A stretch of DNA of 64,000 bases, from the NCBI RefSeq assembly GCF_001677475.2, contig NZ_CP015229.1; one strand, given 5' to 3'. Positions 7,703 to 32,490 of the stretch are shown one piece after another (positions within the stretch are counted from its first letter, which is position 1; each line of letters opens with the position of its first letter). The notes under the pieces are model-generated. The model did no database searches. It was not told where the DNA came from and saw nothing but the letters and a program-made list of their open reading frames with translations. The position numbers and the translations under genes are program-made. Source of the DNA: Escherichia coli (GTDB lineage: Bacteria; Pseudomonadota; Gammaproteobacteria; Enterobacterales; Enterobacteriaceae).

Positions 7703-10168
<2,466 letters not shown>

Positions 10169-11602: not shown

Positions 11603-12897
11603 TATCGCTCCTGTTTATGCCCTAACTTCCGTAGCATTTCGCGCGTTACCAGCACGATGCCTTCTTCTGAACGATAGAAACGACGTGCATCTTCCTCTGC
11701 GTTTTCACCAATCACCATGCCTTCCGGAATAACACAAGCACGATCGATGACGCAGCGGCGCAGACGGCACGAGCGACCTACCCATACTTCCGGTAACAAT
11801 ACGGCGGAATCAATGTTGCAGAATGAATTCACGCGAACGCGCGAGAACAGAACGGACTGCACCACCACCGAGCCGGAGATTACACAACCGCCGGAAACCA
11901 GTGAGTTAAGGGTCATCCCGTGGCTACCGGAGCGATCCTGCACGAATTTCGCTGGCGGTAATGATTCATTGTAGGTGCGAATTGGCCAATTGCGATCGTA
12001 CATATCCAGTTCCGGCACCACAGAGGCCAGATCGAGGTTCGCTTTCCAGTAAGCTTCCAGCGTACCCACATCGCGCCAGTACGGCTCGGCATCCGGGTCG
12101 GATTGTACGCAAGAGAGCGGGAACGGGTGCGCATAGGCCAGACCGGCTTCGGTGATCTTGGGAATCAAATCTTTGCCAAAGTCGTGGCTGGAGTTCTCAT
12201 CGCGATCGTCTTCTTCCAGCAGTTCATACAGATAGTCGGCGTCAAAGACGTAGATACCCATACTCGCCAGAGATTTGCTCGGATCGTTCGGCATTGACGG
12301 TGGGTTAGCAGGTTTTTCAACGAATTCGATAATTTTATCGTTCTCATCAACCGCCATAACACCAAATGCGGAGGCTTCTTCAATCGGTACTGGCATACAA
12401 GCAACGGTGCAACGTGCGCCTTTTTCGACGTGATCGATAAGCATACGCGAGTAGTCTTGCTTGTAGATATGGTCGCCCGCCAGGATTACCACGTATTCCG
12501 CTTTATAACGGCGGATAATATCGAGGTTTTGGGTGACCGCATCTGCGGTGCCGCGATACCAGTTTTCCCCTTTCATTCTCTGCTGTGCTGGCAGCAGATC
12601 GACAAACTCGTTCATTTCTTCATTGAAGAATGACCAGCCGCGCTGAATGTGCTGCACCAGAGTGTGGGACTGGTACTGGGTGATCACGCCCATACGACGG
12701 ATCCCGGAGTTGATGCAGTTAGACAGCGCAAAGTCAATAATGCGGAACTTACCGCCGAAGTGTACGGCCGGTTTTGCTCGCTTATTGGTTAAATCCTTCA
12801 GGCGGGTACCACGTCCTCCCGCCAGTATCAGGGCAACAGATTTCAATGGCAGCTGGCGCGCCAACATTAAGTGATCGTTCTTCTCTAAACTAACCAT
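11602..12897 (-). CDS. glgC: Glucose-1-phosphate adenylyltransferase GlgC
   Basis: Track ORF 443 aa; conserved start [17 protein letters not shown] gives 431 aa; GGRGTRL nucleotide-binding motif; overlaps the glgA start by 1 nt. Confidence 0.95.
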
Positions 12898-12914
12898 GAC
12901 TAACTCCTTTTTTA

Positions 12915-14888
12915 TCATCTCTGGAACACACACAATCCGTGTGCAGGTCCCTGCCAGACAGCCGTAATCACTGGGTTATCCTCTCCAGCGAATGGGGGAA
13001 TGGCGTGCCACTCCCCAGCAGGTAAAACAATCTCTGTTACCTCAAGCGTGGCGTTAATTGCGATCAAAAAGCGATCCGAGAGCAGAATTTGCAGCTGTTT
13101 CGGCCCGTTTTGCCACTCATCCGTGCTTAAAGGTTGAGCATATCGATTTAGCCAACGGACATTGCCGTCGCCTTCTTCCCACCAGCGATTCTCCACCAAA
13201 GCGGGAATGCGCTTGCGCAGATGGATTAACGCGGCGGTAAATGCGGTTAAACCACTGCTTGCCTGCGACCAGTCCAACCAGGTTAATTGGTTATCCTGAC
13301 AGTAGGCATTGTTATTGCCATGCTGGCTGTGACCATGTTCGTCACCGGCCAGTAACATCGGCGTACCCTGGGAGAGCAACAACGTTGTTAACAGGGCGTG
13401 AATGCTGTCGCGCCGCCGTTCAACCAGGTCAAGAGTACCGCCTAACCCTTCTTTACCATGATTGTTACTGTAATTGTTGTTGGTCCCGTCGCGATTTTCT
13501 TCTCCGTTTGCTTCATTGTGTTTATGGTTGAAACAAACGCAGTCGCGAAGCGTAAAACCGTCATGCGCGGTGACGAGATTAATCGCGGCACTCGGCAGAC
13601 GACCATTACGTTTAAAAACATCGCTGGAGGCAGCAAAACGCCCGGCAAACGCCCCCAGAGGCAAATCATAATGTAGCCAGAAACGACGGGCAGCATCGCG
13701 GAAATGATCGTTCCACTCGGCAAACAGCGGCGGGAAATTTCCCACCTGATAACCACCAGGAGCGATATCCCACGGTTCAGCAATTAACTTCACCTGCGAG
13801 AGCACCGGGCAGTTCTGGATAGCGGTAAACAACGGCGCATCCTGACGGAACTCTGGCGTACGGCCCATGACTGCCGCCAGATCAAAGCGGAAACCATCGA
13901 CGTGGCAGGTTTCTACCCAATAACGCAGGCAGGCGCTGGCATAATCCACCACCGCCGGATGACTCAAATTGAGCGTGTTGCCACAACCGGTCCAGTTGTG
14001 ATAATCGCCGTCTTCTCTTATCCAATAATAGCTACGGTTGTCGATCCCACGCAGCGAGAATAACGGGCCGTCGAGGTCCAGTTCCGCACTATGGTTGAGC
14101 ACGATATCAAGAATGACTTCGATACCCGCTTTATGCAGTGCTTTGATTGCATCGCGAAACTCATCCAGCGCCGTTTCTGGCGAGCAGGCATACGCCGGAT
14201 GCAGCGCAAACATCGCCACCGGGTTATAACCCCAGTAGTTACTTAGACCCATACGTTGCAGGCGTGGTTCGCTGGCAAACTGCGCCACCGGCAGCAGTTC
14301 CAGCGCGGTAATGCCCAACTGTTTCAAATAGTTGATCATCACCGGATGCCCCAGGGCTTTATAAGTGCCACGGATCTCGACTGGGATCTCCGGGTGCAGG
14401 TACGTTAATCCTTTGACATGGGCTTCATAAATGATGGTGCTGCCCCACGGCGTGCGCGGCGGGGCATCATCTTCCCAGTCATAGTGATCAACCACCACTA
14501 CGCATTTCGGCGCAATGGCGGCGTTGTCGCGATAGTCAGGTTCATTATGACCGGCGTGCAGCAGCGGGTTATCTTTAAACTCCCCGTCAATTTGCCGCGC
14601 GCAAGGATCAATCAACAACTTCGCCGGGTTAAAGCGATGCCCCTCGGCGGGTTGCCAGGGGCCATGAACGCGATAACCATAACGCAAACCCGGGCGCGCA
14701 TCCGGCAGATAACCGTGCCAAATGTCGCCACTGTGCCCTGGCAAGTCATAGCGATGTTCCTGGCCATTGGCGTCAAAGACACACAGTTCTACCCGCTCGG
14801 CATGAGCGGAGAAAAGTGTGAAGTTGACGCCCTGACCGTCGTAATGCGCGCCGAGGGGAGCGGGTTTGCCAATGGCGAGTTGTGTCAT
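12915..14888 (-). CDS. glgX: Glycogen debranching enzyme GlgX
   Basis: 657-aa ORF; GH13 isoamylase-type domain; overlaps the glgB stop by 4 nt. Confidence 0.95.
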
Positions 14889-17071
14889 TCTGCCTCCCGA
14901 ACCAGCCAGATAGTGGCCAGCGGTGGTAGCGTCAGGCTTAGTGAATGCTGACGACCGTGGCTGGCAATCTCATCGCTGTGTACCGTGCCGCCATTGCCTG
15001 CATTACTGCCGTGATAGTGCATGGAATCGGTATTGAGGATCTCACGCCATTTGCCCGGCTGATTGATGCCGAAGCGATAATCATGACGCGGCACCGGCGT
15101 AAAGTTACTGGCAACGATGATTTCGTTACCCTCTTTATCGCGACGCACAAAGATCAGCACCGAGCGTTCTTTGTCATCCACCACCAGCCATTCAAAGCCG
15201 TACGGGTCAAAATCCAGTTCATGCATTGCTTTATGGTGGCGGTAGGTGAGGTTCAGATCGCGCACCAGACGCTGGACACCGTGGTGCCAGTTATCGCCGC
15301 CTTCCAACAGATGCCAGTCGAGGCTGGCGTCATGGTTCCACTCGCGGCCCTGGGCAAATTCGTTCCCCATGAACAGCAGTTTCTTGCCCGGGAATGCCCA
15401 CATCCAGCCGTAGTAGGCGCGCAGGTTAGCGAATTTCTGCCATGCGTCGCCCGGCATCCGGTCGAGAATCGATTTTTTACCGTGGACCACTTCATCATGC
15501 GACAACGGCAGGACGAAGTTTTCAGTGTAGTTGTAGAGCATCCCGAAGGTCAGTTTATCGTGATGATACTGACGATAAACCGGGTCGAGCTTCATGTAGT
15601 CCAGGGTGTCATGCATCCAGCCTAGGTTCCACTTGTACCAGAAGCCCAGACCGCCCATATCCTGCGGACGAGAAACGCCTGGGAAATCGGTAGACTCCTC
15701 AGCCATTGTCACCGCACCGGAAACCTGCTCACCAAGAATACGGTTGGTATTACGCAAGAATTCAATCGCTTCAAGATTCTCGCGCCCGCCAAATTCGTTC
15801 GGGATCCACTCCCCCTCTTTACGGCTGTAGTCGCGATAAATCATTGACGCCACCGCATCGACGCGCAGCGCATCAATACCAAAACGTTCAATCCAGTAAA
15901 GCGCGTTACCGACAAGGAAGTTACTGACTTCACGGCGACCATAGTTGTAGATCAGCGTGTTCCAGTCCTGATGATAGCCTTCGCGCGGATCGCTGTGTTC
16001 ATACAAGTTCGTGCCATCAAATTCGGCAAGCGCAAAGTCATCGGTCGGGAAGTGGCCTGGCACCCAGTCGAGAATCACGTTCAGACCAGCTGCGTGTGCA
16101 GCATCAATGAAATAACGGAAGTCGTCGCGAGTACCAAAACGGCGGGTCGGTGCATACAGGCCGGTTGGCTGATAACCCCAACTGCCATCGAAGGGATGCT
16201 CGTTAATGGGCAGTAGCTCGAGATGGGTAAAGCCCATCCATTTAGCATAAGGCACCAGTTGATCGGCCAGCTCGCGGTAGCTCAACCAGAAATTGTTGTC
16301 GGTGTGACGACGCCAGGAGCCCAGGTGAACTTCATAAATAGAGATTGGCGCATCAAACTGATTCGCTTTTTTGCGCTCTTCAGTCTGTACAACCTTTTCC
16401 GGCAGCCCACAAATAAGAGACGCGGTTTCCGGGCGCATTTGCGCTTCGAAGGCATAAGGGTCGGACTTCAGACGCAAGTTGCCATTGGCATCAATCATCT
16501 CGTATTTATAGAGCTGACCGTTATGCGCCCCAGGGATAAACAGTTCCCAGATGCCGCTCTCTTTACGCAGACGCATCGGGTGACGGCGACCGTCCCAGTA
16601 GTTGAATTGCCCAACCACCGAGACCCGACGGGCGTTTGGAGCCCAGACAGAGAAACGCGTACCTGTGACGCCATCCATAGTATCTGCATGCGCGCCTAAG
16701 GTTTCATACGGGCGCAGGTGAGTACCTTCAGATAATAGCCAGGCATCCATTTCCTGGATTAGCGGACCAAAACGGTAAGGATCATCAATCAGGTTTTGCT
16801 GACCATGCCAGACAACAGCCAACTGATAGCGGAAAAAATTCTTACGTCGCGGAATGACACCGCTAAAGAATCCCCGTGAGTCGAGACACTCCAGTTTTGC
16901 GAGTTTGCGCCCGGTTTTCGGTTCAATCACCCACACATCGGTAGCGTCGGGTAAAAGGGCACGGACTTCCAGTCCCGCGGTGGTTTTATGCATCCCCAGT
17001 ACGGAAAAAGGATCCGCAAAATGGCCTGCAATTAGCGCGTTAATCACGTCTCTATCGATACGATCGGACAT
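14885..17071 (-). CDS. glgB: 1,4-alpha-glucan branching enzyme GlgB
   Basis: 728-aa ORF; GH13 branching-enzyme architecture; first gene of glgBX. Confidence 0.95.
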
Positions 17072-17343
17072 GCTTGTCTTCCTGTTTTATTGTGTCACCC
17101 CATCCAACTGGATTTTTGACTTCTGGTTGTGACATTTTTTTGACCTGAACGGCGCAGCACTCTGTGCATCCTCTCTGCGTCGTCCTCACTTCAGGTAAGG
17201 CTGTGAATACTCATGTATTCAGCCACCCTTAAAGAATAGCCAATGCTCTATTTAACTCCCGGTAAATCATGAAACATCTGCGCTTACTCCTGTATTACGC
17301 ACTAACAGGGGCGGCATCGCGCCCCAGATTTAATGAATAAAGA

Positions 17344-18447
17344 TTACGCCAGTTGACGAAGCATCCGACGCAGCGGCTCCGCGGCCCCCCACAGCAGCTG
17401 GTCGCCCACGGTAAAGGCTGACAGGAACTCTGGTCCCATATTCAGCTTACGCAGGCGGCCTACCGGCGTGGTCAGCGTGCCGGTAACGGCAGCTGGGGTT
17501 AGCTCACGCATAGTGATTTCCCGATCGTTCGGAACGACTTTCGCCCACGGATTGTGCGCAGCCAGCAGTTCTTCCACGGTCGGAATAGACACATCTTTTT
17601 TCAATTTAATAGTGAATGCCTGGCTGTGGCAGCGCAATGCCCCGACACGCACACATAAACCATCTACCGGAATTACGGAAGATGTGTTGAGGATCTTGTT
17701 GGTTTCCGCCTGCCCTTTCCACTCTTCGCGGCTCTGACCGTTATCAAGCTGTTTGTCGATCCACGGAATCAGGCTACCCGCCAGCGGCACGCCAAAGTTA
17801 TCCACCGGCAGCTCACCGCTACGGGTTAAGGTTGTGACTTTGCGTTCGATATCGAGAATAGCAGAGGACGGGGTCGCGAGTTCATCTGCCACATGGCTAT
17901 ACAGATGGCCCATCTGGGTTAATAACTCACGCATATGTCGCGCACCACCGCCGGAAGCGGCCTGGTAGGTTGCAACGGACACCCAATCAACAAGATCATT
18001 GGCGAATAAACCACCCAACGACATCAACATCAGGCTTACGGTACAGTTACCGCCAACAAAAGTCCTGATGCCATTATTTAATCCGTCGGTAATGACGTCC
18101 TGATTGACGGGGTCAAGAATGATGATGGCGTCATCTTTCATGCGCAGAGATGATGCTGCGTCAATCCAGTAACCTTGCCATCCGCTTTCACGAAGCTTTG
18201 GATAGATTTCGTTGGTATAATCGCCGCCCTGACAGGTCACAATGATATCGAGGGCCTTTAGCGCCTCCAGATCAAAGGCATCCTGAAGTGTGCCAGTGGT
18301 TCCGCCAAAAGACGGCGCAGCCTGACCAAGCTGAGAAGTAGAAAAGAAGACAGGGCGAATGGCGTCGAAGTCGCGCTCTTCAACCATGCGTTGCATGAGA
18401 ACGGAGCCGACCATACCGCGCCAGCCGATAAAACCAACATTTTTCAT
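17344..18447 (-). CDS. asd: Aspartate-semialdehyde dehydrogenase Asd
   Basis: Track ORF 387 aa; conserved start [17 protein letters not shown] gives 367 aa; catalytic Cys region GGNCTVSLM. Confidence 0.95.
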
Positions 18448-18638
18448 AAGCGTTTTTTCCTGCAAAGATGTGTGCTGTATAAATGTGCCGGTCTCCTCTT
18501 GGCACATCTTTCACCATACAAAAAGCAGCCAAAGTCGCAAGTGAAATTAATCAATGATAGCGAAGCCATCAGTAATGCGACTTATCCTGCTTTGTTAGCA
18601 CGCAGAAAGTCCGCGGCAATTATCAGGGAATTTGAGTT

Positions 18639-19232
18639 ATGAATGAAATCATTTCTGCAGCAGTTTTATTGATCCTGATTATGGATCCGCTCGGAAACCT
18701 ACCTATTTTCATGTCCGTACTGAAACATACTGAACCGAAAAGACGGCGGGCAATCATGGTGCGAGAGTTGCTTATTGCTCTCCTGGTGATGCTGGTGTTC
18801 CTGTTTGCGGGTGAGAAAATTCTGGCATTTCTCAGCCTGCGAGCAGAAACCGTTTCCATTTCTGGCGGCATCATTCTGTTTCTGATCGCCATTAAGATGA
18901 TTTTCCCCAGCGCTTCAGGAAATAGCAGCGGGCTTCCGGCAGGTGAAGAGCCGTTTATCGTGCCGTTGGCAATTCCGTTAGTCGCCGGGCCGACTATTCT
19001 CGCCACGCTGATGTTGTTGTCTCATCAGTACCCGAATCAGATGGGACATCTGGTGATTGCTCTGCTGCTGGCCTGGGGCGGCACCTTTGTTATCCTTCTA
19101 CAGTCTTCGCTATTTTTACGTCTGCTGGGCGAGAAAGGGGTGAATGCACTTGAACGCCTGATGGGATTGATTCTGGTGATGATGGCAACCCAGATGTTCC
19201 TCGACGGCATTCGAATGTGGATGAAGGGGTAA
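18639..19232 (+). CDS. yhgN: MarC-family inner membrane protein YhgN
   Basis: 197-aa hydrophobic ORF; position between asd and gntU. Confidence 0.85.
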   Translation: MNEIISAAVLLILIMDPLGNLPIFMSVLKHTEPKRRRAIMVRELLIALLVMLVFLFAGEKILAFLSLRAETVSISGGIILFLIAIKMIFPSASGNSSGLPAGEEPFIVPLAIPLVAGPTILATLMLLSHQYPNQMGHLVIALLLAWGGTFVILLQSSLFLRLLGEKGVNALERLMGLILVMMATQMFLDGIRMWMKG

Positions 19233-19288
19233 CGAGGAGCGTTTTTCGAAAAGAGCCCGGTAGCGTCACAACTACCGGGCGAACAAAC

Positions 19289-20629
19289 TTAACTCAACAG
19301 CTGGAAAGCAATCATCCCAACGATGGCACCGACAGTGCCGAGGATGGTTTCCATCATGGTCCAGGTTTTCAGTGTTTCGGCTTCAGTCGCGCCGGTAAAT
19401 TTACCGAACAACCAGAAACCGGCGTCGTTAACGTGGCTGACAACAATCGAACCACCGGCGATACAAATCGACAGCGCCGCCATTTGCGCACCGGAGTAGT
19501 TCAGTTGTTCAATAACCGGCATCACCAGTCCCACCGCCGTTAAACAGGCAACGGTGGCAGAACCCTGAATGATGCGCACTGCAGCTGCCAGCACGAAGCA
19601 GGTGATGGCAATCGGCAGGCCCATGCCGGTTAACGCTTCGCCCAGTGCCGGACCTACGCCAGAGTCAACCAGCACCTGTTTGAACACGCCGCCTGCACCA
19701 ATCACCAGCAGAATGATCCCCGCCGGTTGCAGCGCGTGACCACAAATTTCCATCACTTTGTCTTTTGGCATGCCCTGACGCATTGCCAGGCCATAAATTG
19801 CTACCAGACAAGCAACCAGAATCGCAGTAAACGGATGACCGATAAACTCAAACCATTCGTAAGCAGTTGATCCTTCTGGTACAAAACGCGCGGCAATGGT
19901 TTTAAGCCCTACCAGTACCAGCGGCAGCAGGATCAGCGACAGGCTAAATCCGAAAGATGGCATTTTGCCTTCACCGAGATGCGGTTCGCTGATGTCGTCA
20001 GGAATATGCAGCTCAACGTAACGGCTGATGAAGTTACCCCACAGCGGCCCGGCAATAATCATTCCCGGAATTGCCGCACACAGGCCAATCAGGATCATCC
20101 AGCCAAAATCGGCGTTCATCTGCGATGCCAGCAGCATTGGCGCAGGTCCAGGCACCAGGAATGCCGCCGCTGCCGCCACGCCTGCGAATAATGGGATTAC
20201 AAGCTTCACCAGGTTCGTACCGGTGTGGCGCGCCATTGAGAAAGCAACGCTAATCAGCAGAACAATCGCCACTTCAAAGAACAGCGGTAGTGCACAGACC
20301 AGCCCCGCAAGGCCGATGGCATAATGCGCGCGGCTGTGACCGAAGGATTTGAGCATTTTGACGGCAATCTGATCGACTGCGCCGGTTTCATGTAAGATCT
20401 TGCCAAACATAGCTCCCAGGGCGACAACCACCGCCAGGAAGCCGAGGGTGCCTCCCATCCCTTTTTCCATCGTCGCTGCGATTTTATCGAGCGGCATACC
20501 GGAAAAAAGGCCAGCCCCCATGGACACCACCATTAAAGCCAGGAAAGCGTGCATACGCGCCTTCATGACTAAAAACAGCAGCAGTAAAACAGACCCTACT
20601 GCTGTTAAAACAAGCGTTAATGTAGTCAC
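19289..20629 (-). CDS. gntU: Low-affinity gluconate:H+ symporter GntU
   Basis: 446-aa polytopic GntP-family ORF; start codon reads as GTG on the minus strand. Confidence 0.9.
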   Translation of the reverse strand: MTTLTLVLTAVGSVLLLLFLVMKARMHAFLALMVVSMGAGLFSGMPLDKIAATMEKGMGGTLGFLAVVVALGAMFGKILHETGAVDQIAVKMLKSFGHSRAHYAIGLAGLVCALPLFFEVAIVLLISVAFSMARHTGTNLVKLVIPLFAGVAAAAAFLVPGPAPMLLASQMNADFGWMILIGLCAAIPGMIIAGPLWGNFISRYVELHIPDDISEPHLGEGKMPSFGFSLSLILLPLVLVGLKTIAARFVPEGSTAYEWFEFIGHPFTAILVACLVAIYGLAMRQGMPKDKVMEICGHALQPAGIILLVIGAGGVFKQVLVDSGVGPALGEALTGMGLPIAITCFVLAAAVRIIQGSATVACLTAVGLVMPVIEQLNYSGAQMAALSICIAGGSIVVSHVNDAGFWLFGKFTGATEAETLKTWTMMETILGTVGAIVGMIAFQLLS

Positions 20630-22294: not shown

Positions 22295-22517
22295 CGTCCT
22301 GAAGGTACAAAAGAGATAGATTCTCTTAGTTTAACACGGACGCCTCAGAACCTTCCCGGGGAAAACAGTGCTTGTTTACAATTATTAGATATACACTAAA
22401 TCAATTGCATCGCATTGTGCTAACGACGCGGCAAAACCCCGGAAGCGTACATCAGCACGCGACCGGAGCGAGCGAGGAAGCCTGCAAAAAGGCAGGCTTC
22501 AAAGATGCCGTTGAGTT

Positions 22518-23213
22518 TTAAACCGGCGGCAGATCGAACAGTAACACTTCGCTGTCGCTATCCGCATGGATGGAGATTGCCTGCTCATCCCAGATTGCCA
22601 GACCATCGCTGGTCGAGGCTTTCACGCCGTTAATGGTGACATTGCCTTTCACCACCTGGATCCAGACGCGGCGTTCAGCGGCAATCTGATGCACCGACTG
22701 CTCATCTTTCAGCAATGCCCAACGATACAGTTCCATATCCTGATGCACTTTCAGCGAACCATCTCGCGCATCCGGCGAGAGCACCAGCTGTTTGCCCTGT
22801 ACGGCATCGAAGCGACGCTGTTCATAACGCGGCGTAATGCCGTTTTCTTCAGGCATGATCCAGATCTGATACAGATGCAGACGCTCGGTGCTGCTTGGGT
22901 TGTACTCAGAGTGACGGATACCCGTACCCGCACTCATAATCTGGAACTCACCCGCCGGAACCTGCTCTTTATTGCCCATGCTGTCCTGATGTTCAACAGT
23001 ACCTTCCAGCACGTAGGTCAAAATTTCCATATCTTTATGCGGGTGAGTGCCGAAGCCCTGCCCTGCTTCAATCACGTCGTCATTAATCACGCGCAGCGCG
23101 GAGAAACCCATAAAGTTCGGATCGTAATAGTTGGCAAAAGAGAAAGTATGCCAGGAGTCCAGCCAGCCATGATTTGCATGACCACGTTCATTTGCTTTGC
23201 GTAAGTAGATCAT
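22518..23213 (-). CDS. yhhW: Pirin-like cupin (quercetin 2,3-dioxygenase) YhhW
   Basis: 231-aa ORF; cupin metal-binding His motif (GFGTHPHKDMEI). Confidence 0.9.
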   Translation of the reverse strand: MIYLRKANERGHANHGWLDSWHTFSFANYYDPNFMGFSALRVINDDVIEAGQGFGTHPHKDMEILTYVLEGTVEHQDSMGNKEQVPAGEFQIMSAGTGIRHSEYNPSSTERLHLYQIWIMPEENGITPRYEQRRFDAVQGKQLVLSPDARDGSLKVHQDMELYRWALLKDEQSVHQIAAERRVWIQVVKGNVTINGVKASTSDGLAIWDEQAISIHADSDSEVLLFDLPPV

Positions 23214-23335
23214 TTGTATTCGCCCCCTGAATGTTTTCGATGGGCTTAGTGTGGACCCGATCTGCCTGGGATGATAGAGGGTGAAAATTGACCCCTCTGT
23301 TCAAAAAAATTGAACTATTCGAGGGGCCATCAAAC

Positions 23336-24373
23336 TTACTTCGCGAGAGTCACTGTGGAGGGAGAAGCTTGCTCAAAACCGCGTTCAAGGATTTCCAGAT
23401 TGGTAAGAACTTCAGATTCCTTGACGTAATTTGGCGCACCGTTGGTGATGGTTTGGTACAACGCATCATAAACGCGCCCATAATCGCCCATTTCTGGCTT
23501 CATCTCTTCTCTGACCGTCACGCCCTCTTCATTGACATACTCCAGCACACCGACCGAATCATCCGCCGCGAATCCCGGTTCGCCCGGCATAATATTAGCC
23601 TTCAGGCTGGTTTCCTGCTGGTCGATACCGTATTTAATAAACGAACCTTTCTTACCGTGAACGATAAATTTCGGATAATCGATTTTCACCAGATGGCTGG
23701 TTTTGACGATGGCTTTCAGGTCGCCATAAAACAGCTGCGCTTCAAAGGTGTCGTCAGGATTGGCTTTATTACGCAGGCTGCGGATGTCATAAGCGACGTG
23801 ATCCGGGCGACCGAACAGAGAAATAATCTGGTCCATCGTATGCACACCAAGGCCATAGAACGCGCCATCCTGCGGCAACCCAGGTTTGGTTTCTGCCACC
23901 GGGCGGTAATAGTCAAAATGGCTTTCCACTTCGACAATCTCTCCCAGCTTGCCGCTTTCAATCGCTTTTTTCGCTGTCAGGAAGCAGGAATCAAAACGAC
24001 GATTCTGATACGGCGTGACGGTCAACCCTTTGCTTTTCGCCAGTGCAAAAAGCTCTTTCGCCTGCGCAAGCGTCGGGGTGAACGGTTTTTCGACCAGCAC
24101 ATTTTTCCCGGCTTCCAGCGCGCGTTTCGCGTACTCGAAGTGGCTGTCCGCGTGGGTGCAGACAACAACCAGCTTAACATCGGGATCGTTTAGCACTTCG
24201 TCGAGATCGCTGGTGAAATGGATATGGGAATAAATGGGAGCCTGTTCTTCCGGCTTCGCATGGCGACGAAAAATATGCGCGACATGCCAGCTATCCTTGC
24301 GGTTAAGTACATACGGCAGATGGTAACGGGTGGTGCTTTTGCCGAAGCCAATAAAGGCGCAGTTGATGACCAT
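23336..24373 (-). CDS. yhhX: Gfo/Idh/MocA-family NAD(P)-dependent oxidoreductase YhhX
   Basis: 345-aa ORF; N-terminal Rossmann fold (INCAFIGFGKSTTRYHLP). Confidence 0.9.
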   Translation of the reverse strand: MVINCAFIGFGKSTTRYHLPYVLNRKDSWHVAHIFRRHAKPEEQAPIYSHIHFTSDLDEVLNDPDVKLVVVCTHADSHFEYAKRALEAGKNVLVEKPFTPTLAQAKELFALAKSKGLTVTPYQNRRFDSCFLTAKKAIESGKLGEIVEVESHFDYYRPVAETKPGLPQDGAFYGLGVHTMDQIISLFGRPDHVAYDIRSLRNKANPDDTFEAQLFYGDLKAIVKTSHLVKIDYPKFIVHGKKGSFIKYGIDQQETSLKANIMPGEPGFAADDSVGVLEYVNEEGVTVREEMKPEMGDYGRVYDALYQTITNGAPNYVKESEVLTNLEILERGFEQASPSTVTLAK

Positions 24374-24494
24374 GATTTCGTCCTTTTTAAGGTGATTATT
24401 TACACCTTAGCGCAAAGCGGACGTGGTTCCTACTGGAGTGCGCATAACGAACACAAGCACTTCCCGTGGATAAATTGAAAACGAAAGATCAAAA

Positions 24495-24584
24495 AAAAGC
24501 CAGCACCCGGCTGGCTAAGTAATACTGGAAGCAATGTGAGCAATGTCGTGCTTTCAGGTTCTCCGCGAGGGTCTTCCTGATCGC
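24495..24584 (-). ncRNA. ryhB: Iron-responsive small RNA RyhB
   Basis: Minus-strand sequence GCGATCAGGAAGACCCTCGCGGAGAACCTGAAAGCACGACATTGCTCACATTGCTTCCAGTATTACTTAGCCAGCCGGGTGCTGGCTTTT matches RyhB as I recall it, including the terminator hairpin and U-tail; ends are approximate. Confidence 0.9.
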
Positions 24585-24587
24585 GAG

Positions 24588-24625
24588 ACAATAATAATCA
24601 TTCTCATTCGCACTTGTCCAACACT
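24588..24625 (-). promoter_or_regulatory. ryhB promoter with Fur box
   Basis: AT-rich Fur-box-like sequence (minus strand aatgagaatgattattattg) immediately upstream of the RyhB 5' end. Confidence 0.65.
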
Positions 24626-24705
24626 TTTTGCAAAAAAATGCATTTGACTCGCATTTGAAAGTCAATGATGTTGAAAGGGACATTTACCCCAAAGAGGACA
24701 AAGGA

Positions 24706-25194
24706 ATGAGTGAGATAGTGATACGCCACGCAGAAACACGGGATTACGAGGCCATCAGGCAGATTCACGCCCAGCCGGAGGTGTATTGCAACACACTACA
24801 ACTACCTCATCCTTCGGAAGGCTGGTGGCCAGAAAGATTGAAAGATCGCCAGGGGTTTAAACAACTGGTTGCCAGCATTGATGGCATCGTGGTGGGTCAT
24901 CTTTTCATTGAGGCTTATCAAGGCCCACGCCGTAGTCATGTTGCAACTTTTGGTATCTGTGTTGACTCCCGCTGGCACAACCGCGGCGTCGCCAGCGCCC
25001 TGATCCGCGAATTGATTGAAATGTGCGACAACTGGTTACGGATAGATCGTATTGAGTTGACGGTGTTTGCGGATAACGCCCCGGCAATCGCCGTCTATAA
25101 AAAATTCGGCTTTCACATAGAAGGCACCGGCAAAAATTACGCTTTTCGTAATGGTGAATATGTCGATGCATATTATATGGCGCGGGTGAAATAA
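24706..25194 (+). CDS. yhhY: GNAT-family N-acetyltransferase YhhY
   Basis: Track ORF 188 aa; conserved start MSEIVIRHAETRDYEA gives 162 aa; acetyl-CoA motif RGVASALI. Confidence 0.9.
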   Translation: MSEIVIRHAETRDYEAIRQIHAQPEVYCNTLQLPHPSEGWWPERLKDRQGFKQLVASIDGIVVGHLFIEAYQGPRRSHVATFGICVDSRWHNRGVASALIRELIEMCDNWLRIDRIELTVFADNAPAIAVYKKFGFHIEGTGKNYAFRNGEYVDAYYMARVK

Positions 25195-25221
25195 AGAATT
25201 TGCAATATAAGTTTGTCATTT

Positions 25222-25248
25222 AAGCCCTCACCTACCGGGAGAGGGCTT
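25222..25248. terminator. Bidirectional terminator hairpin shared by convergent yhhY and ggt
   Basis: 8-bp stem aagccctc/gagggctt with 11-nt loop in the 60-bp gap between the two stops. Confidence 0.45.
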
Positions 25249-25254
25249 AAGATA

Positions 25255-26988
25255 TTAATAACCCGCCGTTAAATCATCCACCGAGCGCGGGTCAGATGCG
25301 CCGTACAACTCGCCGTCCGGCCCAACCATAATGCTTTGTGTGCTGCCCATCGCCTCTTTCAGCGCTACTTTCTGACCTTTTGCTTCCAGCAGCTTGAGCG
25401 TATCCGGGCTAAATCCTTTCTCGACACGCAGCTCGTCCGGCAACCACTGATGGTGGAAACGCGGTGCATTGGTCGCTTCGGCGACATTCATACCATAATC
25501 GATGCTATTCACCACCATTTGCAGCACGGTAGTGATGATCCGGCTACCGCCAGGGCTACCGGTGACCAGCCAGGTTTTACCGTCTTTCACCACAATGGTT
25601 GGTGACATCGACGACAGCGGACGTTTATTCGGCCCGACGGCGTTGGCATCACCGCCCACCAGCCCGTAAACGTTCGGTACGCCAGGTTTGGCGGAGAAAT
25701 CATCCATTTGGTTATTAAGCAGAATACCGCTATCACCCGCGACAATGCCCGTACCGAAGGTGGTGTTCAGCGTATAGGTCACCGCTACCGCGTTGCCGTC
25801 TTTATCCACCACTGAGTAATGGGTAGTTTGATTACTCTCATAAGGCGCAAGCTTGCCGGGGCGAATTTCGCTGGATGGCTTCGCTTTATTGATATCGATT
25901 TGATCGGCAATGGATTTGGCATAGGCTTTATTGGTCAGCGCCTGCCACGGCACTTTGACAAAATCCGGGTCGCCAAGATATTCCGAGCGGTCGGCGTAGG
26001 CGTATTTCTCAGCTTCAGCCATGATTTGCATCGCGTCGGCACTGCCAAAGCCGTATTTCTTCATATCGAAGTTTTCCAGAATATTGAGGATTTGTACGAT
26101 ATGGATCCCGCCGGAGGATGGCGGTGGCATGGAGTAAACCTGATACCCGCGATAATCGCCGCTTATTGGTGTGCGTTCGACCGCTTTATACGCCGCTAAA
26201 TCTTCTTTGGTGATCAAGCCACCGTTTTTCTGCATCTCCTGGGCAATCTGTTCCGCTATCGTGCCTTTGTAGAATTCGTCCGGGCCGTTTTCGGCAATCA
26301 TCTCCAGGCTCTTTGCCAGGTTCGCCTGCACCAGCTTGTCGCCCTTTTTCAGCGGCTCGCCCTCTTTCCAGAAGATAGCCTTGCTGTTTTCGTGGTTCGG
26401 CAGCACTTCACTGCCGTAGGTTTTGAGATCGTCTGCCAAAGCATCGTTAACGATAAAACCATCGCGTGCCAGTTTAAACGCCGGCTGCACGACTTTATTC
26501 AGCGGCATAGTGCCGTACTTATCCAACGCCAGCGAGAAACCTGCGACCGTACCGGGCGTGCCGGAAGCCAGATGCGAAGTGAGTGATTTTTTGCTGTCCG
26601 GGTTGCCCTGGTCATCAAGGAACATATCGCGGGTCGCTTTGGCGGGTGCCATTTCGCGGAAATCAATCGCCGTGGTGTTGCCATCTTTAGTGCGGATCAG
26701 CATAAAACCACCGCCGCCCAGATTCCCCGCCTGCGGATGCGTTACCGCCAGCGCATACCCCACCGCCACGGCGGCATCAACGGCATTACCACCTTCTTTA
26801 AGGATATTCACCCCCACCTGAGTGGCAGTAGCATCCACAGACGCCACCATCCCCTGTTTCGCGCGTACCGGATGAAAGACATCTTCCTCCACGCCATAAG
26901 AAACAGGAGGCGCGGCGGCGGCGCTAAAACAACTTCCTGAGAGCAGAGCAGCAATGGCCACCCGGCGTAAAAACGTCGGTTTTATCAT
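25255..26988 (-). CDS. ggt: Gamma-glutamyltranspeptidase Ggt (periplasmic)
   Basis: Track ORF 586 aa; conserved start MIKPTFLRRVAIAALL (signal peptide) gives about 580 aa; catalytic Thr in TTHYSVVD. Confidence 0.95.
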   Translation of the reverse strand: MIKPTFLRRVAIAALLSGSCFSAAAAPPVSYGVEEDVFHPVRAKQGMVASVDATATQVGVNILKEGGNAVDAAVAVGYALAVTHPQAGNLGGGGFMLIRTKDGNTTAIDFREMAPAKATRDMFLDDQGNPDSKKSLTSHLASGTPGTVAGFSLALDKYGTMPLNKVVQPAFKLARDGFIVNDALADDLKTYGSEVLPNHENSKAIFWKEGEPLKKGDKLVQANLAKSLEMIAENGPDEFYKGTIAEQIAQEMQKNGGLITKEDLAAYKAVERTPISGDYRGYQVYSMPPPSSGGIHIVQILNILENFDMKKYGFGSADAMQIMAEAEKYAYADRSEYLGDPDFVKVPWQALTNKAYAKSIADQIDINKAKPSSEIRPGKLAPYESNQTTHYSVVDKDGNAVAVTYTLNTTFGTGIVAGDSGILLNNQMDDFSAKPGVPNVYGLVGGDANAVGPNKRPLSSMSPTIVVKDGKTWLVTGSPGGSRIITTVLQMVVNSIDYGMNVAEATNAPRFHHQWLPDELRVEKGFSPDTLKLLEAKGQKVALKEAMGSTQSIMVGPDGELYGASDPRSVDDLTAGY

Positions 26989-27107
26989 CGTTATTCTCCA
27001 GAGATTAAGGGGCAACCCCAGCTAAGCCTGGTATATAACTCTGAATTAATCCTGATGATTGCAGGAAAGGAGTAAACTTAAAGAATATCTTCAGAGGAGG
27101 ATACGCG

Positions 27108-27500
27108 ATGAAACGACTTCTGATTCTTACGGCACTCCTGCCGTTTGTCGGCTTTGCACAGCCCATTAATACTCTGAACAACCCTAACCAGCCGGGGTAT
27201 CAGATCCCCAGTCAGCAGCGGATGCAAACCCAAATGCAAACGCAGCAAATCCAGCAAAAAGGGATGCTGAATCAGCAACTGAAAACGCAAACTCAGTTGC
27301 AACAACAGCATTTAGAAAACCAGATAAACAATAATTCTCAGCGGGTGTTGCAGTCACAGCCGGGGGAGCGAAATCCCGCCCGGCAGCAAATGCTGCCCAA
27401 CACCAACGGCGGGATGTTAAACAGCAACCGTAATCCGGATAGTTCGTTGAATCAGCAGCATATGCTGCCGGAGAGGAGAAACGGCGACATGCTGAATTAG
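27108..27500 (+). CDS. yhhA: Secreted Gln/Asn-rich low-complexity protein YhhA
   Basis: 130-aa ORF; N-terminal signal peptide ([17 protein letters not shown]), then Q/N-rich repetitive sequence. Confidence 0.8.
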
Positions 27501-27534
27501 CCCAGCACGCCGCAGCCTGATATTCCGTTGAAAA

Positions 27535-28278
27535 CTATTGGGCCGTAAAGTTCGGACCAATCACGTCAATCGCATCGGTACAGATGCAATCCACGCCCCA
27601 GCGCAGCAACTCTGTCGCGCGCTGGGGTTTATTGACGGTATAAACCAGAATCCGTAATCCGGCGTCTTTCAACTGCATCACTCGCGCTTTATCGAGTAAC
27701 TTATGATTGAGATGAATAGAGACGCAGCCCAGCCGCGCGGTCAGTTCTCGCCAGTCGTCGCGCCACTCATCAAGCAATAAACCGCGCGGCAGTTCTGGTA
27801 CTGCTTGTTGCGCGGCTTCTAAAGCATCAATCTCAAACGATGACAGCAGCGGCGGCGTCATATCGGCCCACAGTTCGCGTGCCGCCAGCGCCACCATTTT
27901 GCCCGTTAATGGTCCAGTGCCAGTGGTGGGTTTGATTTCGATATTCGCCATCATCCCGTGTTCACGACAGCGTTCCGCCACCTGCGAAAGCAACGGTAGC
28001 GGCTCACCTTTAAACATTTTGCTGTACCAACTGCCCGCATCCACGCGCAGTAAATCCTGCCAGTTCAGTTCACCCGCGACGCCCCAGCCGTTGCTGGTAC
28101 GTTCGAGATTGTCGTCATGAAGCAGGAAGATCTCGCCATCTTTCGATAACTTCGCGTCAAATTCGATCATCTTATGACCGTATTTTGCCCCGACGTCGAT
28201 TGCCGCCAGGGTGTTTTCGGGGGCCAGCTTACCGCCGCCACGATGAGCGACGATGCGGGGATAAGGCCAGTTACTCAT
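27535..28278 (-). CDS. ugpQ: Cytoplasmic glycerophosphodiester phosphodiesterase UgpQ
   Basis: 247-aa ORF; GDPD-family catalytic His (IVAHRGGG). Confidence 0.95.
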
Positions 28279-29345
28279 ACTCGTTGTCCTGTTTCACCAT
28301 CAAAAAGATGCAGCTGATTTTCCGCCAAATGCAGCCACAGCGTGCTGCCTGCCGTCGGGCGCTCCTGATGCGCCAGTCGCACCACCAGCTTCTGCTCGCC
28401 CCAGCGTCCGTGCGCCAGGTTATCTGCGCCGAGGATCTCCAGCGTATCCATCACCAGCGGTACGCCACCTTCTGCTTGCGAGCTTAGCGCAATATGTTCC
28501 GGGCGAATGCCGAGGGTCATTTTACGCCCGGCATACTGACGGTAGCCACCGTTTAGCGGCAGCTCAATACCGCCGTCCAGTTCGAAATGCGTGCCTTCGT
28601 TATTCACGCGGCCTGTCAGCAGGTTCATCGCCGGGCTGCCGATAAAACTCGCCACAAACAGGCTGGCGGGCTTTTCATACACTTCAACCGGAGTGCCAAT
28701 CTGTTCGGCAACGCCGCCGTTCATCACCATCACCCGCTGAGCGAGCGTCATCGCCTCAACCTGATCGTGAGTAACGTAGAGTGAAGTCGTTTTCAGGCGA
28801 CGGTGCAATTGCTGCAACTCAAGGCGCATCTGCACGCGCAGCTTGGCATCAAGGTTCGAGAGCGGCTCATCAAACAAAAATACCGCCGGATCGCGCACAA
28901 TCGCGCGCCCCATTGCCACGCGCTGGCGCTGCCCGCCGGAAAGCTCACGCGGGCGACGTTTGAGCAGACCGTCCAGCTCCAGAATGCGCGCCGCTTCTTT
29001 AACGCGCTCGGCTATTTGCTGCTTGCCCATGCCGCGAATTTTCAGCCCCCACGCCATGTTTTCTTCGACGCTCATATGCGGATAAAGCGCGTAGTTCTGG
29101 AACACCATCGCAATCCCGCGATCTTTCGGCTCCATTTCGGTCACACGCTCATTGTTGATCCAGATATCGCCTTCCGTTACCCGCTCCAGCCCGGCAACCA
29201 TGCGCAGCAGCGTGGATTTCCCGCAGCCAGACGGCCCGACCATCACGATAAATTCGCCATCCGCCACATCAAGGGTCAGCGGTTTAATCACCTGGGTTTT
29301 GCCATCCCAGCTTTTGGTTACTGCCTGTAATTTCAGTCCTGCCAT
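28275..29345 (-). CDS. ugpC: sn-glycerol-3-phosphate ABC transporter ATP-binding protein UgpC
   Basis: Track ORF 369 aa; conserved start [13 protein letters not shown] gives 356 aa; Walker [10 protein letters not shown] and signature LSGGQRQR. Confidence 0.95.
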
Positions 29346-29346
29346 C

Positions 29347-30192
29347 TTATTTCTCACTATCGACCAGGCCGCGCACGAAGGCACGCTGCATCACTAAAAC
29401 AATCACTACTGGTGGGATCAGGGTTAACAACATCGCCGCCATCACCGAGTTCCATTCCGTGGTGCCTTCGCCAGTGGCGATCATCCCTTTAATCCCTGCC
29501 ACGGTGGTGCCGAGATCAACGTCGGTAATAATCAACAACGGCCACAAATACTGGTTCCAGCCGTAAATAAAGGTGATCACAAACAGCGCCGCCAGATTAG
29601 TTTTGGAGAGCGGAAAAACGATGTCGCAAAAGAAGCGCATTGGTGACGCACCGTCGATCCGCGCCGCTTCCACCAGCTCATCCGGCAGCGTCATAAAGAA
29701 CTGGCGGAAAAGAAACGTGGCGGTCGCCGAGGCCATCAGCGGCAGCGTTAAACCGGCGTAGCTGTCGAGCATCTTCAGATTGGCGATGACTTCCACCGTC
29801 GGGAAAATACGCACTTCAACCGGCAGCATCAGGGTGATAAAAATCATCCAGAAGAATAGGTTACGTAGCGGAAAACGAAACCAGACAATGGCAAATGCCG
29901 AGAGCATCGAGACGGTAATTTTGCCGAGCGTAATGCTGAACGCCATCACAAAGCTGTTAAGCAACATCCGCCAGAACGGCGCGCTATTCGTGCCTACCCC
30001 GTTCACCCAGATGTTGTGGATGTTTTCCAGCAGATGCGTGCCGGGGATGAGCGTCATCGGCGCGGCGTAGACGGCCTGTTTATCCAGCGTCGCCGCGACA
30101 AACGCCACGTACAGCGGGAAGAGGATCACCGCGATCCCGAGGATCAGCATGGTATGGCTGAATATCGTCAGCCACGGACGGTTCTCAATCAT
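29347..30192 (-). CDS. ugpE: sn-glycerol-3-phosphate ABC transporter permease UgpE
   Basis: 281-aa polytopic ORF; operon position. Confidence 0.95.
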
Positions 30193-31076
30193 TGGTAACG
30201 CACCTTGCTTTCAACATAGCGGAACTGCACCACCGTCAGCACGATGACGAGGAACATCAACACCACCGACTGCGCGGCAGACGAAGCCAGATCCAGTCCG
30301 GTAAAGCCTTCGCGGTAAATCTTATAAATCAGCGTCGTGGTGGCCTGAACCGGCCCGCCGGACGTGGCGGCGTCGATCACCGGGAAGGTGTCGAAGAAGG
30401 CGTACACCAGGTTCACCACCAGCAGGAAGAAACTCACCGGGGCGATAAGCGGCAGAGCAATCTTAAAGAAGCGGCGAATCGGCCCTGCACCGTCGATGGC
30501 TGCGGCTTCGATCAACGAACGGGGAATGGATTGCAGCGCGGCATAGAAGAACAGAAAGTTGTAGCTGATTTGCTTCCACACCGAGGCAAACACCACCAGA
30601 AACATTGCCTGACCGCTGTTTTGCGCGTGGTTCCAGTCGTAGCCGAACTCAGCGAGAAAATGGGTGATCAGCCCACGGCCGGGGTTAAACAGGAAGATCC
30701 ACAATACTGCGGCAACGGCGGGAGCCACGGCATACGGCAGCAGCATCAAGGTTTGATAGAAACGACTGCCGCGCACGATGTACTCCACCAGCGCCGCGAA
30801 GAACAGCGACACCAGCAAACCGCTAACGGTGACAAAGGTGCTGAATTTTATCGTCGTCCAGAAGGAATCGAGATAGTAGCTGTCATGGAACAGCGTGACG
30901 AAGTTATCCAGGCCGACAAACTGGCTGGAGAAACCAAACGGATCGACGCTTTGTAGCGAGTACCACAACGCTTCGCCCGCAGGCCAGATAAAAAAGATAA
31001 CGGTGATGATGAGCTGCGGCGCGACCAGCAGATAAGGCAGCCAGCGCGAGCGGAACACCGGACGGGATGATGACAT
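30189..31076 (-). CDS. ugpA: sn-glycerol-3-phosphate ABC transporter permease UgpA
   Basis: 295-aa polytopic ORF; operon position. Confidence 0.95.
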
Positions 31077-31094
31077 TACGGTTAATTCCTGAAC

Positions 31095-31165
31095 TGTGCC
31101 GGATGCGCTTCGCTTATCCGGCCTACACGCGATGCCAGGTCAGATAAGCGAAACGCATCCGACAT
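31095..31165. repeat. REP/BIME element in the ugpB–ugpA intergenic region
   Basis: REP-type palindromes tgccggatgcgcttcgcttatccggcctac and gtcagataagcgaaacgcatccgac. Confidence 0.7.
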
Positions 31166-31173
31166 TACACTGA

Positions 31174-32490
31174 TTAAGACTTCGTCGATTTCTCAAAGCG
31201 GCGCAGTAACTGATTCCCACGCTCAACGGCGGTATCCAGCGCCTGCTGTGGCGTCTTCTTACCGGTCCACACGCTCTCCAGCTCTTCATCCACAATCACG
31301 CGGATTTGCGGCATGTTGCCCAGACGCAGCCCTTTGGTGAACGGCAACGGCGGCTTGTTCAGCATCTGACGCGTCGCGGTATCCGCCCCTGGGTTTTTCT
31401 CATAAAAGCCCTGCTCACGGGTCAGGTCATACGCTGCTTTGGTGATTGGCAGATAACCGGTTTTCTGATGCCACTCGGCAGCGTTTTCTGGCTTCGCGAG
31501 GAAGTCGAGGAACTTCGCCACGCCGGTATACGTTTCTTTATCTTTGCCCTGCATCACCCACAGGCTGGCTCCGCCGATAATGGCATTTTGTGGCGCATCT
31601 TTCGCGTCAGCGTCGTAAGGCATCATGCCTACGCCATAGTTGAATTTGGCGTACTCGCGAATGTTGGCAAGCGAACCGGAAGAGGCGGTGGTCATCGCGC
31701 AATCACCGTTATAGAACTTCTCGGTGGATTCATCCTTACGACCGACGTAGCTGAAGTCGCCCTTCTTGTTCATCTCCTCGAGCATGGCAATGTGTTTCAC
31801 CTGCTCCGGCTTGTTGAACTCCAGCACCGCGTCCGTGCCGTCAAAACCGTTGTTTTTGCTGGCAAACGGCAGACCGTTCCAGGCGCTAAAGTTTTCCAGT
31901 TGGATCCAGCCCTGCCAGCCGCTGGCGTAGCCGCACTTCATACCGGAGGCTTTCAATTTTGCGGCATAGTCCGCCAGATCCTGCCAGGTTTTCGGCGGCT
32001 GTTCCGGGTCTAATCCTGCTTTCTTGAAGGCGTCTTTGTTGTAATAGAGTACGGGGGTCGAGCTGTTGAACGGCTGGGAGAGTAAGTGGCCCGTTTTGCT
32101 GTCGGAGTAGTAACCGGAAACCGTCGGCACAAACTGCGATTCATCGAATTGAATCCCCGCCTCTTTAAACACGTCATATACCGGTTTAATGGCTTTCGAC
32201 GCCATCATGGTGGCGGTGCCAACTTCATAAACCTGCAAAATAGCCGGAGCGTTGCCGGTACGAAATGCGGCAATCCCCGCGCTTAAATTCTGTTCGTAGT
32301 TGCCTTTATAGGTCGGTACAATTTTGTAATCCGGGTTTTCGGCGTTAAAACGTTGGGCCAGAGAATCCACCTCTTTACCCAGTTCCCCTTCCATAGAATG
32401 CCAGAACGGAATGGTCGTCACTGCCTGTGCATTCCCCATTAACGCCAGTCCGAGCGCCAGTGCTGAAGCTGTATAATGTAACGGTTTCAT
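31174..32490 (-). CDS. ugpB: Periplasmic sn-glycerol-3-phosphate-binding protein UgpB
   Basis: 438-aa ORF with signal peptide; solute-binding protein heading the ugp operon. Confidence 0.95.

Follow-up and report, generated by a model that had tools for sequence, protein, structure and literature searches.

On identity and architecture jointly, the open reading frame at positions 27108..27500 (+) of the window, the 64,000-nucleotide stretch of Escherichia coli DNA that was analysed, is almost certainly the chromosomal E. coli gene yhhA, present here as an allele truncated by a premature amber codon. Taken as a whole, yhhA is best read as encoding a non-enzymatic periplasmic stress protein, a reading to which we assign a probability of roughly 0.6. 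It is an annotated core gene that is uncharacterised, and its unusual composition and prion-like character are already on record. New here are the rare amber allele, the predicted helix-plus-tail architecture of the product, the modular history of its family, and in-frame length variants that appear to be driven by slippage.

Identity and genomic context of yhhA

The reading frame runs from ATG to stop over exactly 27108..27500 (+) and comprises 130 codons followed by TAG. Its product matches the Pfam family DUF2756 (PF10956) over the entire profile (positions 1-105 of 105; E 7.6e-61, 203.5 bits against a gathering threshold of 21) and the NCBIfam equivalog PRK10350, for which it scores 236.6 bits (cut-off 136) over positions 1-129 of the 145 in the profile. 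Besides DUF2756 no Pfam family reaches its cut-off, the matches to CemA and ThsA_Macro at E 0.09 being at chance level. RefSeq annotates the homologous locus as yhhA and, with both family matches, this bears out the name YhhA that the sequence-only reading had given. Residues 1-130 are 100% identical to those of the K-12 protein WP_000825996.1, and 5,424 of the 5,426 complete E. coli genomes, K-12 included, contain the DNA. The start codon is preceded, at a distance of 6 nt, by a Shine-Dalgarno sequence AGGAGG (27096..27101, +), of which GGAGG is conserved in orthologous loci.

As in K-12, the gene is divergent from ggt and convergent with ugpQ (27535..28278, -; reading frame and RefSeq annotation), which is a core chromosomal position. 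The order ggt-yhhA-ugpQ also occurs in O157, Salmonella, Enterobacter and one distant family member, while for the most distant member it is seen on the ugpQ side only. The glg region of the window shows 99.0% identity to ordinary E. coli strains; the ggt-ugp segment is locally more diverged, with at most 97.0% identity to any complete E. coli genome.

A naturally circulating amber allele

In an alignment with K-12, strain 104 and O157, codon 131 differs by one C>T substitution, which turns CAG (Gln131 in reference alleles; alignment column 391) into TAG (27498..27500, +). The product here has 130 residues against the usual 146, the last 16 being lost. Reading past the amber codon stays in frame for 15 codons up to a second stop, and this former 3' end (15 codons plus TAA; 27501..27548, +) is untranslated and undecayed. 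The sequence-only reading had placed the end of the gene at 27500, which is indeed where the reading frame stops, but the codon there is a premature one and the normal end lies at 27548; the truncation had been missed. The normal E. coli product, 146 residues ending in PLKTIGP, is thus not what this copy encodes, a truncated allele that is still a family member.

The 41-mer carrying TAG is found in none of the 5,426 complete E. coli genomes, compared with 4,602 genomes for the control 41-mer carrying CAG; the 41-nt megablast query was centred on the variant and seeds only on alleles that have the T. Two draft assemblies share the allele. One of them (GCA_031299685.2, here L005) matches the window at 100% identity through 6.4 kb, TAG included. 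The other (GCA_018428245.1, here L006) carries this TAG too, within a 3.7-kb haplotype that is shared and outside which its flanks differ in clustered, recombination-like patches. The amber allele is real and naturally circulating. The 130-residue product was found in 122 index blocks, a count that overstates the allele because one such record (L007) is only a product cut at a contig end, where the next base is C; equating the 122 blocks with 122 amber alleles was therefore rejected. Among the 24 longest contigs, 22 share the gene neighborhood of L005, L006 is confirmed as amber, and the remaining one is the contig-end cut.

Apart from the stop, the window copy differs from K-12 yhhA by seven synonymous and no missense changes (dS 0.079, dN 0), and in the undecayed 48-nt 3' remnant the sole difference from K-12 is synonymous, so that the mutation looks either recent or tolerated. 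With regard to amber suppression, the window holds no tRNA gene and hence no suppressor. The 130-residue form probably remains functional, since it keeps every module found across the family and resembles orthologues that naturally lack the tail: six orthologues of Citrobacter or Enterobacter type end in NGDMLNxx(x) or NGNMLNHSQ, 2-4 residues from the position of the amber codon. Loss of the PLKTI(G/S/T)P tail could nevertheless matter, since that tail is conserved in most genera, although its conservation may be partly due to the overlap with ugpQ and to a hairpin on the opposite strand, both described below.

It is unlikely, in our estimation, that the window copy is a dead gene, that is, an early-stage pseudogene whose function is abolished by the amber codon through the lost tail or a destabilised product. 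The stop does remove 16 of 146 residues, among them the tail conserved in most genera; the absence of the allele from all 5,426 complete genomes is as expected for a mildly deleterious variant; and other damaged alleles exist, strain A16 having a deletion and CP178317.1 a frameshift. Yet 89% of the protein and every conserved family-wide module are kept, natural orthologues stop within 2-4 residues of the same point, no further decay is seen on either side of the stop (no missense change upstream, a remnant in frame downstream), and two or more diverged backgrounds have kept the allele. We regard the truncating SNP as a minor strain-level variant, and the finding as real but ordinary.

Composition and sequence constraint

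In the mature protein (residues 18-130) glutamine makes up 23.9% and asparagine 15.9% of residues, or 39.8% together, an extreme content that bears out the sequence-only reading. The 50 other reading frames of at least 200 codons in the window have a mean Q+N content of 7.8% (sd 2.4%), and no 113-residue stretch in any of them exceeds 19.5%; against this mean and this maximum the bias in YhhA is far beyond chance. Bacteria seldom carry proteins so rich in Gln and Asn. The mature part has no C, F or W and a single aromatic residue, with 8% proline, 5.3% glycine and regularly spaced charged residues. The motifs listed earlier are all present (QQ seven times, MLN three times, LNQQ twice), and further ones can be added to them, KGML/GGML/GDML and QQML/QQHML.

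Part of the earlier description, that of low-complexity repeats, has to be qualified, as these motifs do not form a tandem DNA repeat. Tandem Repeats Finder returned nothing at a score of 30 or above in yhhA DNA, where there are only degenerate direct repeats of 9-30 nt and the longest glutamine run is three codons. A tandem-repeat locus of the contingency type was accordingly rejected, given the lack of a head-to-tail DNA array by this program. The C-terminal half contains two degenerate QQ(H)MLP...NG(G/D)MLN units about 24-25 residues apart, and the DNA direct repeats D1 and D6 in this half are spaced 72-75 nt. An alignment of 31 orthologues from across genera has 28 invariant columns, of which many are Q or N. 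Orthologues without the repeat composition, which the sequence-only reading had named as evidence against itself, did not appear: Q+N is 28-49% in every family member examined. Because of these invariant columns and this uniformly high content, the bias is conserved in register, and the sequence is position-specific as opposed to a drifting low-complexity tract.

Constraint on the protein can also be seen from substitution rates. For the pair E. coli and Salmonella, yhhA has a dN of 0.215, as compared with 0.095 for ugpQ and 0.071 for ggt; divergence between genera is given as dN only, because dS is saturated. By this measure YhhA is constrained but evolves 2-3 times faster than its enzyme neighbors ggt and ugpQ, and since its nonsynonymous divergence exceeds theirs by that factor, we consider the constraint real but loose.

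Modular history of the DUF2756 family

A word-indexed search recovered 491 homologues, all of them from Enterobacteriaceae-type sources, and just 81 matches, many of which are fragments, came from a profile search that went exhaustively through 1.84 billion representatives. Distant members of the family (87-117 residues) keep only three parts, namely the signal peptide, the motif NPSQQRMQ and a Q-rich segment with QRVLxSQPG at its end. Intermediate members have one LPNxNGGML unit added, while Escherichia and Salmonella proteins have two units of this type and the PLKTI(G/S/T)P tail. The whole C-terminal half is missing from minimal family members. By these comparisons the Q-rich core is the ancestral module of the family, and the analysis separates ancestral modules of YhhA from lineage-specific additions.

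Signal peptide and export

Codons 1-17 (27108..27158, +) encode a predicted Sec-type signal peptide with a basic n-region, a hydrophobic core, G at position -3 and A at -1, and without a lipobox cysteine. Cleavage between A17 and Q18 (GFA/QP) was read by rule, and A17-Q18-P19 is invariant in the 31 orthologues. This rule-based reading agrees with the earlier description of YhhA as an exported protein, and YhhA has been seen in extracts of periplasm type (PMC9731836). After cleavage the N-terminus may carry pyroglutamate.

The same signal bears on the claim in bioRxiv 10.1101/364117 that YhhA is a validated type III secreted effector of enteropathogenic E. coli (EPEC), a claim which we find scarcely credible. 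It is made there as a statement accompanied by an analysis of S/TQ motifs, but such motifs follow automatically from 24% Gln. The classical Sec signal peptide also speaks against it, as does the distribution of the gene, which 5,424 of the 5,426 E. coli genomes possess, K-12 among them, which also occurs in commensal or environmental Enterobacterales, and which occupies a core chromosomal position and not a pathogenicity island.

Predicted architecture of the mature protein

The mature protein consists of a short conserved N-terminal motif (NPSQQR), a Q-rich predicted helix of about 49 residues and an N/Q/P-rich tail. The Q-rich core, codons 34-82 (27207..27353, +), was delimited by AlphaFold2, family alignments and the mapping of indels. 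With the E. coli alignment AlphaFold2 predicts a single helix over residues 34-82 at moderate pLDDT (about 64-81; pTM 0.22) and assigns no secondary structure to residues 18-33 and 83-146, where pLDDT is mostly 41-58. For a distant member of 103 residues the same 49-residue helix is predicted at pLDDT 86-91, with unstructured flanks and pTM 0.31. In the C-terminal half present here, codons 83-130 (27354..27497, +), which contains the DNA direct repeats described above, pLDDT is about 41-53, and it falls below 50 through most of the C-terminal tail. On the charge-hydropathy plot the mature protein lies on the disordered side (H 0.334 against a boundary of 0.426; GRAVY -1.49).

These results give a mixed answer to the suggestion of intrinsic disorder: it agrees with residues 18-33 and 83-130 and with the charge-hydropathy value, but not with residues 34-82, which are predicted to form a helix. 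A well-folded predicted structure, which had been named as the outcome that would speak against the sequence-only reading, was not obtained, with pTM values of 0.22 and 0.31 and no globular fold. A profile search of the PDB found no relative at E<=1. As modelled, YhhA has no predicted globular fold, and it has no catalytic-looking residues or cysteine.

The predicted helix is not amphipathic, its hydrophobic moment being 0.112 as compared with 0.115 +/- 0.058 for shuffled sequences, and the best heptad register places I, L, M or V at only 5 of about 14 a/d positions. For these reasons no surface for self-association or client binding is evident. A classical coiled coil was considered and rejected, as there is neither a heptad register nor an amphipathic stripe and the sizes of the indels are not multiples of 7.

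Length variants of the helix

The expectation that length would vary between strains was confirmed, E. coli YhhA proteins ranging from 108 to 165 residues. In all 12 variants that were examined the reading frame is preserved, the change being either a duplication (+9 to +17 residues) or a deletion (-3 to -38 residues) within residues 37-83, and the in-frame indels of E. coli all fall inside the predicted helix. Direct repeats of 4-7 nt flank 10 of the 12 indel alleles against an expected 9.6% (binomial P = 3.6e-9), in a test that was computed on the DNA of the window rather than on the own sequence of each variant and that takes all in-frame pairs as its expectation. Reciprocal events were also seen at two junctions: variant P0001 duplicates and P0026 deletes residues 44-60, and for residues 46-55 the duplication is in P0004 and the deletion in P0012. 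Such sequence patterns indicate that length variation results from replication slippage between short CAG/CAA-rich direct repeats in the region coding for the putative helix.

The 146-residue form is the one found in most genomes, and in the cluster table the length variants are rare singletons. A frameshifted form of 109 residues (P0093) was left out as evidence because assembly error or Shigella-like decay could explain it; ggt, yhhA, ugpQ and ugpC are all split on that chromosome. Together, the 130-residue amber form and the in-frame helix length variants of 108-165 residues make up a set of natural alleles that experiments can use.

Convergence with ugpQ and a hairpin on the opposite strand

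At its normal length, yhhA shares its last 14 nt with the 3' end of ugpQ. In each of the five loci whose downstream side is visible, namely those of E. coli, Salmonella, Enterobacter and two distant members, the DUF2756 gene and ugpQ converge, with an overlap of 4-20 nt in close genera and a gap of 33-92 nt in the distant members. Directly 3' of the ugpQ stop, inside yhhA codons ~124-137, the opposite strand can form a stable hairpin (27479..27518, -; MFE -23.4 kcal/mol, z -3.5). Its stem is identical in K-12 and it was flagged as terminator-like; we infer that it serves as the ugp terminator. In Rfam this hairpin had just a chance miRNA-like match (E 0.63). The idea that the amber SNP alters the hairpin was discarded, since the SNP lies in the loop and leaves stem and energy unchanged.

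This arrangement raises the alternative that the transcript matters more than the protein, with yhhA acting mainly as a convergent unit (an excludon) that overlaps ugpQ, hosts the ugp terminator and tunes the ugp operon. The pair yhhA-ugpQ is among the convergent overlapping pairs of ExcludonFinder (PMC12288877), the two genes remain convergent neighbors in the most distant family members as well, and the stable hairpin lies within the 3' coding region of yhhA. We consider this alternative very improbable, however, in view of the purifying selection on the protein, apparent from the seven synonymous and no missense changes, the invariant columns and the fact that all listed length variants are in frame. 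The ribosome-binding site is strong, YhhA is abundant in proteomes (PMC9927464, PMC4265081 and, going by a figure legend, PMC9731836), and in the distant members the gaps of 33-92 nt mean that the genes do not overlap at all. Synteny inside one bacterial order is, moreover, a weak sign of functional linkage.

Promoter and expression

Upstream of yhhA, TAAACTTAA (27074..27082, +) is a candidate sigma-S-type -10 element, belonging to a block conserved in Escherichia, Salmonella and Enterobacter. In the upstream alignment the block GAGTAAACTTAAAG is shared by genera from Escherichia to Enterobacter and looks similar to the sigma-S -10 consensus. The assignment of this conserved block to a sigma-S promoter is a putative one, based on sequence, and would place the transcription start near 27086. 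A scan for sigma-70 promoters in the window found no consensus site for yhhA.

Published data on expression point in the same direction. Genomic SELEX placed a site for the RpoS holoenzyme in the spacer between ggt and yhhA (PMC5493296), and in O157 yhhA rises 2.5-fold at the transition to stationary phase, together with rpoS and rmf (PMC2241611). An inhibitor of LolCDE increases yhhA expression 5.6-9.9-fold, alongside RpoS and Rcs genes (PMC5105897). A meta-analysis also found yhhA up-regulated in several classes of stress (PMC9501238), and its expression goes up in acid (PMC2270276, PMC7824302). At the protein level, YhhA increases 1.7-3.1-fold under sub-MIC beta-lactam (PMC9927464), and Salmonella YhhA has been detected by proteomics (PMC4265081). 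For 60 C extracts of stationary-phase Shiga toxin-producing E. coli (STEC), YhhA appears in the legend of the figure on the 15 most abundant proteins, next to the periplasmic proteins HdeB, ZraP, SodC, PsiF and Ivy (PMC9731836). The searchable literature yielded no knockout phenotype and no experimentally assigned function for yhhA.

Proposed mode of action

A periplasmic, non-enzymatic stress protein could work as follows. The gene would be transcribed from its own promoter, most likely in an RpoS-dependent manner, and cells would make the protein as they enter stationary phase and when exposed to envelope, acid and antibiotic stress. After export to the periplasm it would accumulate as an abundant, very hydrophilic, heat-soluble polypeptide. 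There it would act physically and not enzymatically, as a protective, holdase-like or hydrating/crowding factor, by means of its polar helix and flexible tail and possibly through Gln-mediated self-association or association with clients. That YhhA acts physically is probable; a protective or chaperone-like mechanism, in contrast, is argued solely by analogy and from composition, and this specific mode of action is tentative and may well prove wrong.

A bolder possibility, which we offer as a long shot, is that DUF2756 proteins are the periplasmic counterpart of eukaryotic Q-rich assemblers, with a 49-residue polar Gln helix that self-associates reversibly as a polar zipper, hydrogel or condensate in the crowded periplasm of stationary phase. 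Such assemblies could buffer hydration or hold unfolded envelope proteins, and the length of the helix could be tuned from strain to strain by in-frame slippage indels. If true, no Q-rich protein forming a condensate or gel in the periplasm of a bacterium would have been described before.

The sequence-only reading had proposed an amyloid-prone sequence, and curli, a Q/N-rich repeat amyloid secreted by E. coli, provide a precedent for reading YhhA as a functional amyloid or prion-like aggregator that forms cross-beta fibrils or a self-propagating aggregate in the periplasm or on the surface. The census rule for Q/N-rich proteins calls for at least 30 Q and/or N in 80 consecutive residues (quoted in PMC8409284), and YhhA passes it with 36 in residues 21-100; three PF10956 proteins are PrionScan candidates in a bacterial survey (PMC4606120 supplement). 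We nonetheless hold an amyloid to be improbable, and at this point the earlier proposal finds no support. The Q-rich core is predicted by AlphaFold2 to be alpha-helical in two independent alignments, with no beta structure, and the mature protein combines 8% proline with regularly spaced charges. Its residues are conserved in register and not merely by composition. YhhA is listed with the abundant soluble proteins after extraction at 60 C and filtration (PMC9731836), and it is outside the four Q/N-rich proteins of the detergent-resistant aggregate (PSIA) screen in E. coli (PMC5790219). There are no genes for a nucleator or a secretion partner nearby.

Comparison with known systems

The closest counterpart is K-12 YhhA itself, the same gene at the same locus, from which the window copy differs by the stop at codon 131. 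Among characterised proteins, Spy, CpxP and ZraP (LTXXQ family) are likewise small, Sec-exported, helical, envelope-stress-induced and non-enzymatic, features that in YhhA are predicted or deduced. ZraP is also named in the same 60 C extracts as YhhA (PMC9731836). YhhA has no match to the Pfam LTXXQ family at E<=1, however, and whereas these chaperones form a helical-hairpin cradle that is charged and amphipathic, YhhA has one straight predicted helix based on Q and N.

The prion-like domains of Sup35N and Ure2 share with YhhA the 30-in-80 rule, low hydropathy and a position on the disordered side of the charge-hydropathy plot. Unlike them, YhhA would be periplasmic with a predicted helical core, has 8% proline and in-register conservation, and seems to be soluble in heat extracts. 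CsgA is Sec-exported, has Q/N-containing imperfect repeats and is expressed in stationary phase in an RpoS-dependent manner, and to this extent it resembles YhhA, for which export and RpoS dependence are predicted. In contrast to CsgA, YhhA has no Pfam match to the curlin repeat and no csgB/E/F/G-like neighbors, is predicted to be alpha-helical and not a beta-helix, and is encoded by a single gene.

YhhA belongs to a set of small stress-induced periplasmic proteins of E. coli without an assigned function, YbgS and YjdP being small RpoS-dependent periplasmic proteins of this kind. Its general properties also resemble those of LEA proteins and hydrophilins, which are very hydrophilic, heat-soluble and stress-induced, have no globular fold and may pass from disorder to helix. 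The chemistry differs, as LEA proteins and hydrophilins are based on glycine and charged residues whereas YhhA is based on Gln and Asn, and with 5.3% glycine it falls under the hydrophilin threshold of about 6%.

Possible mosaic ancestry of the ggt-ugp segment

Among 5,426 complete E. coli genomes, the best identity to the ggt-ugp segment (window 22300-31200) is 97.0%, whereas the glg segment (window 8000-20000) reaches up to 99.0%. Mismatches between the window and L006, a draft assembly (GCA_018428245.1) carrying the same yhhA amber allele, cluster at 25294-25735 and 29422-29812. Taken together, the contrast in identity between the segments and the clustering of these mismatches suggest a mosaic of recombination patches.

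Candidate regulatory elements flanking yhhA

The minus strand at window 27479-27518 is predicted to form a stable hairpin directly 3' of the ugpQ stop and inside the 3' coding region of the convergent yhhA, with a folding energy of -23.4 kcal/mol and a z-score of -3.5. It probably terminates the ugpBAECQ transcript or stabilises its 3' end, so that dual constraint would act on 27479-27518. The ggt/yhhA spacer contains a second conserved block at window 27020-27045 (GCCTGGTATATAACTCTG; GCCTGGTTCACAACTCT in Salmonella and Enterobacter), which may be a minus-strand ggt promoter or a shared regulator site.

Variation at yhhA-family loci in other genomes

In E. coli A16 (NZ_CP028758.1; L004 2609-3425), yhhA and ugpQ have each lost their 3' portion to a deletion and are annotated as pseudogenes, a separate case of natural loss where the two genes converge. 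On the 4.59 Mb chromosome CP178317.1 (L008), ggt, yhhA, ugpQ and ugpC are each in fragments with IS1 close by, reflecting either Shigella-like gene decay or assembly frameshift errors; the 109-residue YhhA form from this chromosome is the representative of a 204-sequence cluster. In a distant DUF2756-bearing genome (GCA_003846135.1; L011 2180-3250), ggt and the DUF2756 gene are separated by an inserted pair of genes for a type III effector and a chaperone (AvrPphF-ORF-2 and CesT domains).

In a Hadza gut metagenome (ERZ4560527), contig L007 ends one base past yhhA codon 130, coinciding exactly with the C/T polymorphism. One possible cause is that CAG and TAG alleles occur together in the sample and broke the assembly graph at this point.

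Comparison of the yhhX-yhhY-ggt junction

At window 23336-25254, yhhX (23336-24373, minus strand) and yhhY (24628-25194, plus strand) directly adjoin ggt. The yhhZ-yrhA-IS1-yrhD-yrhB island, which sits between yhhY and ggt in K-12 and strain A16, is absent here, as it likewise is between these genes in Salmonella and Enterobacter.
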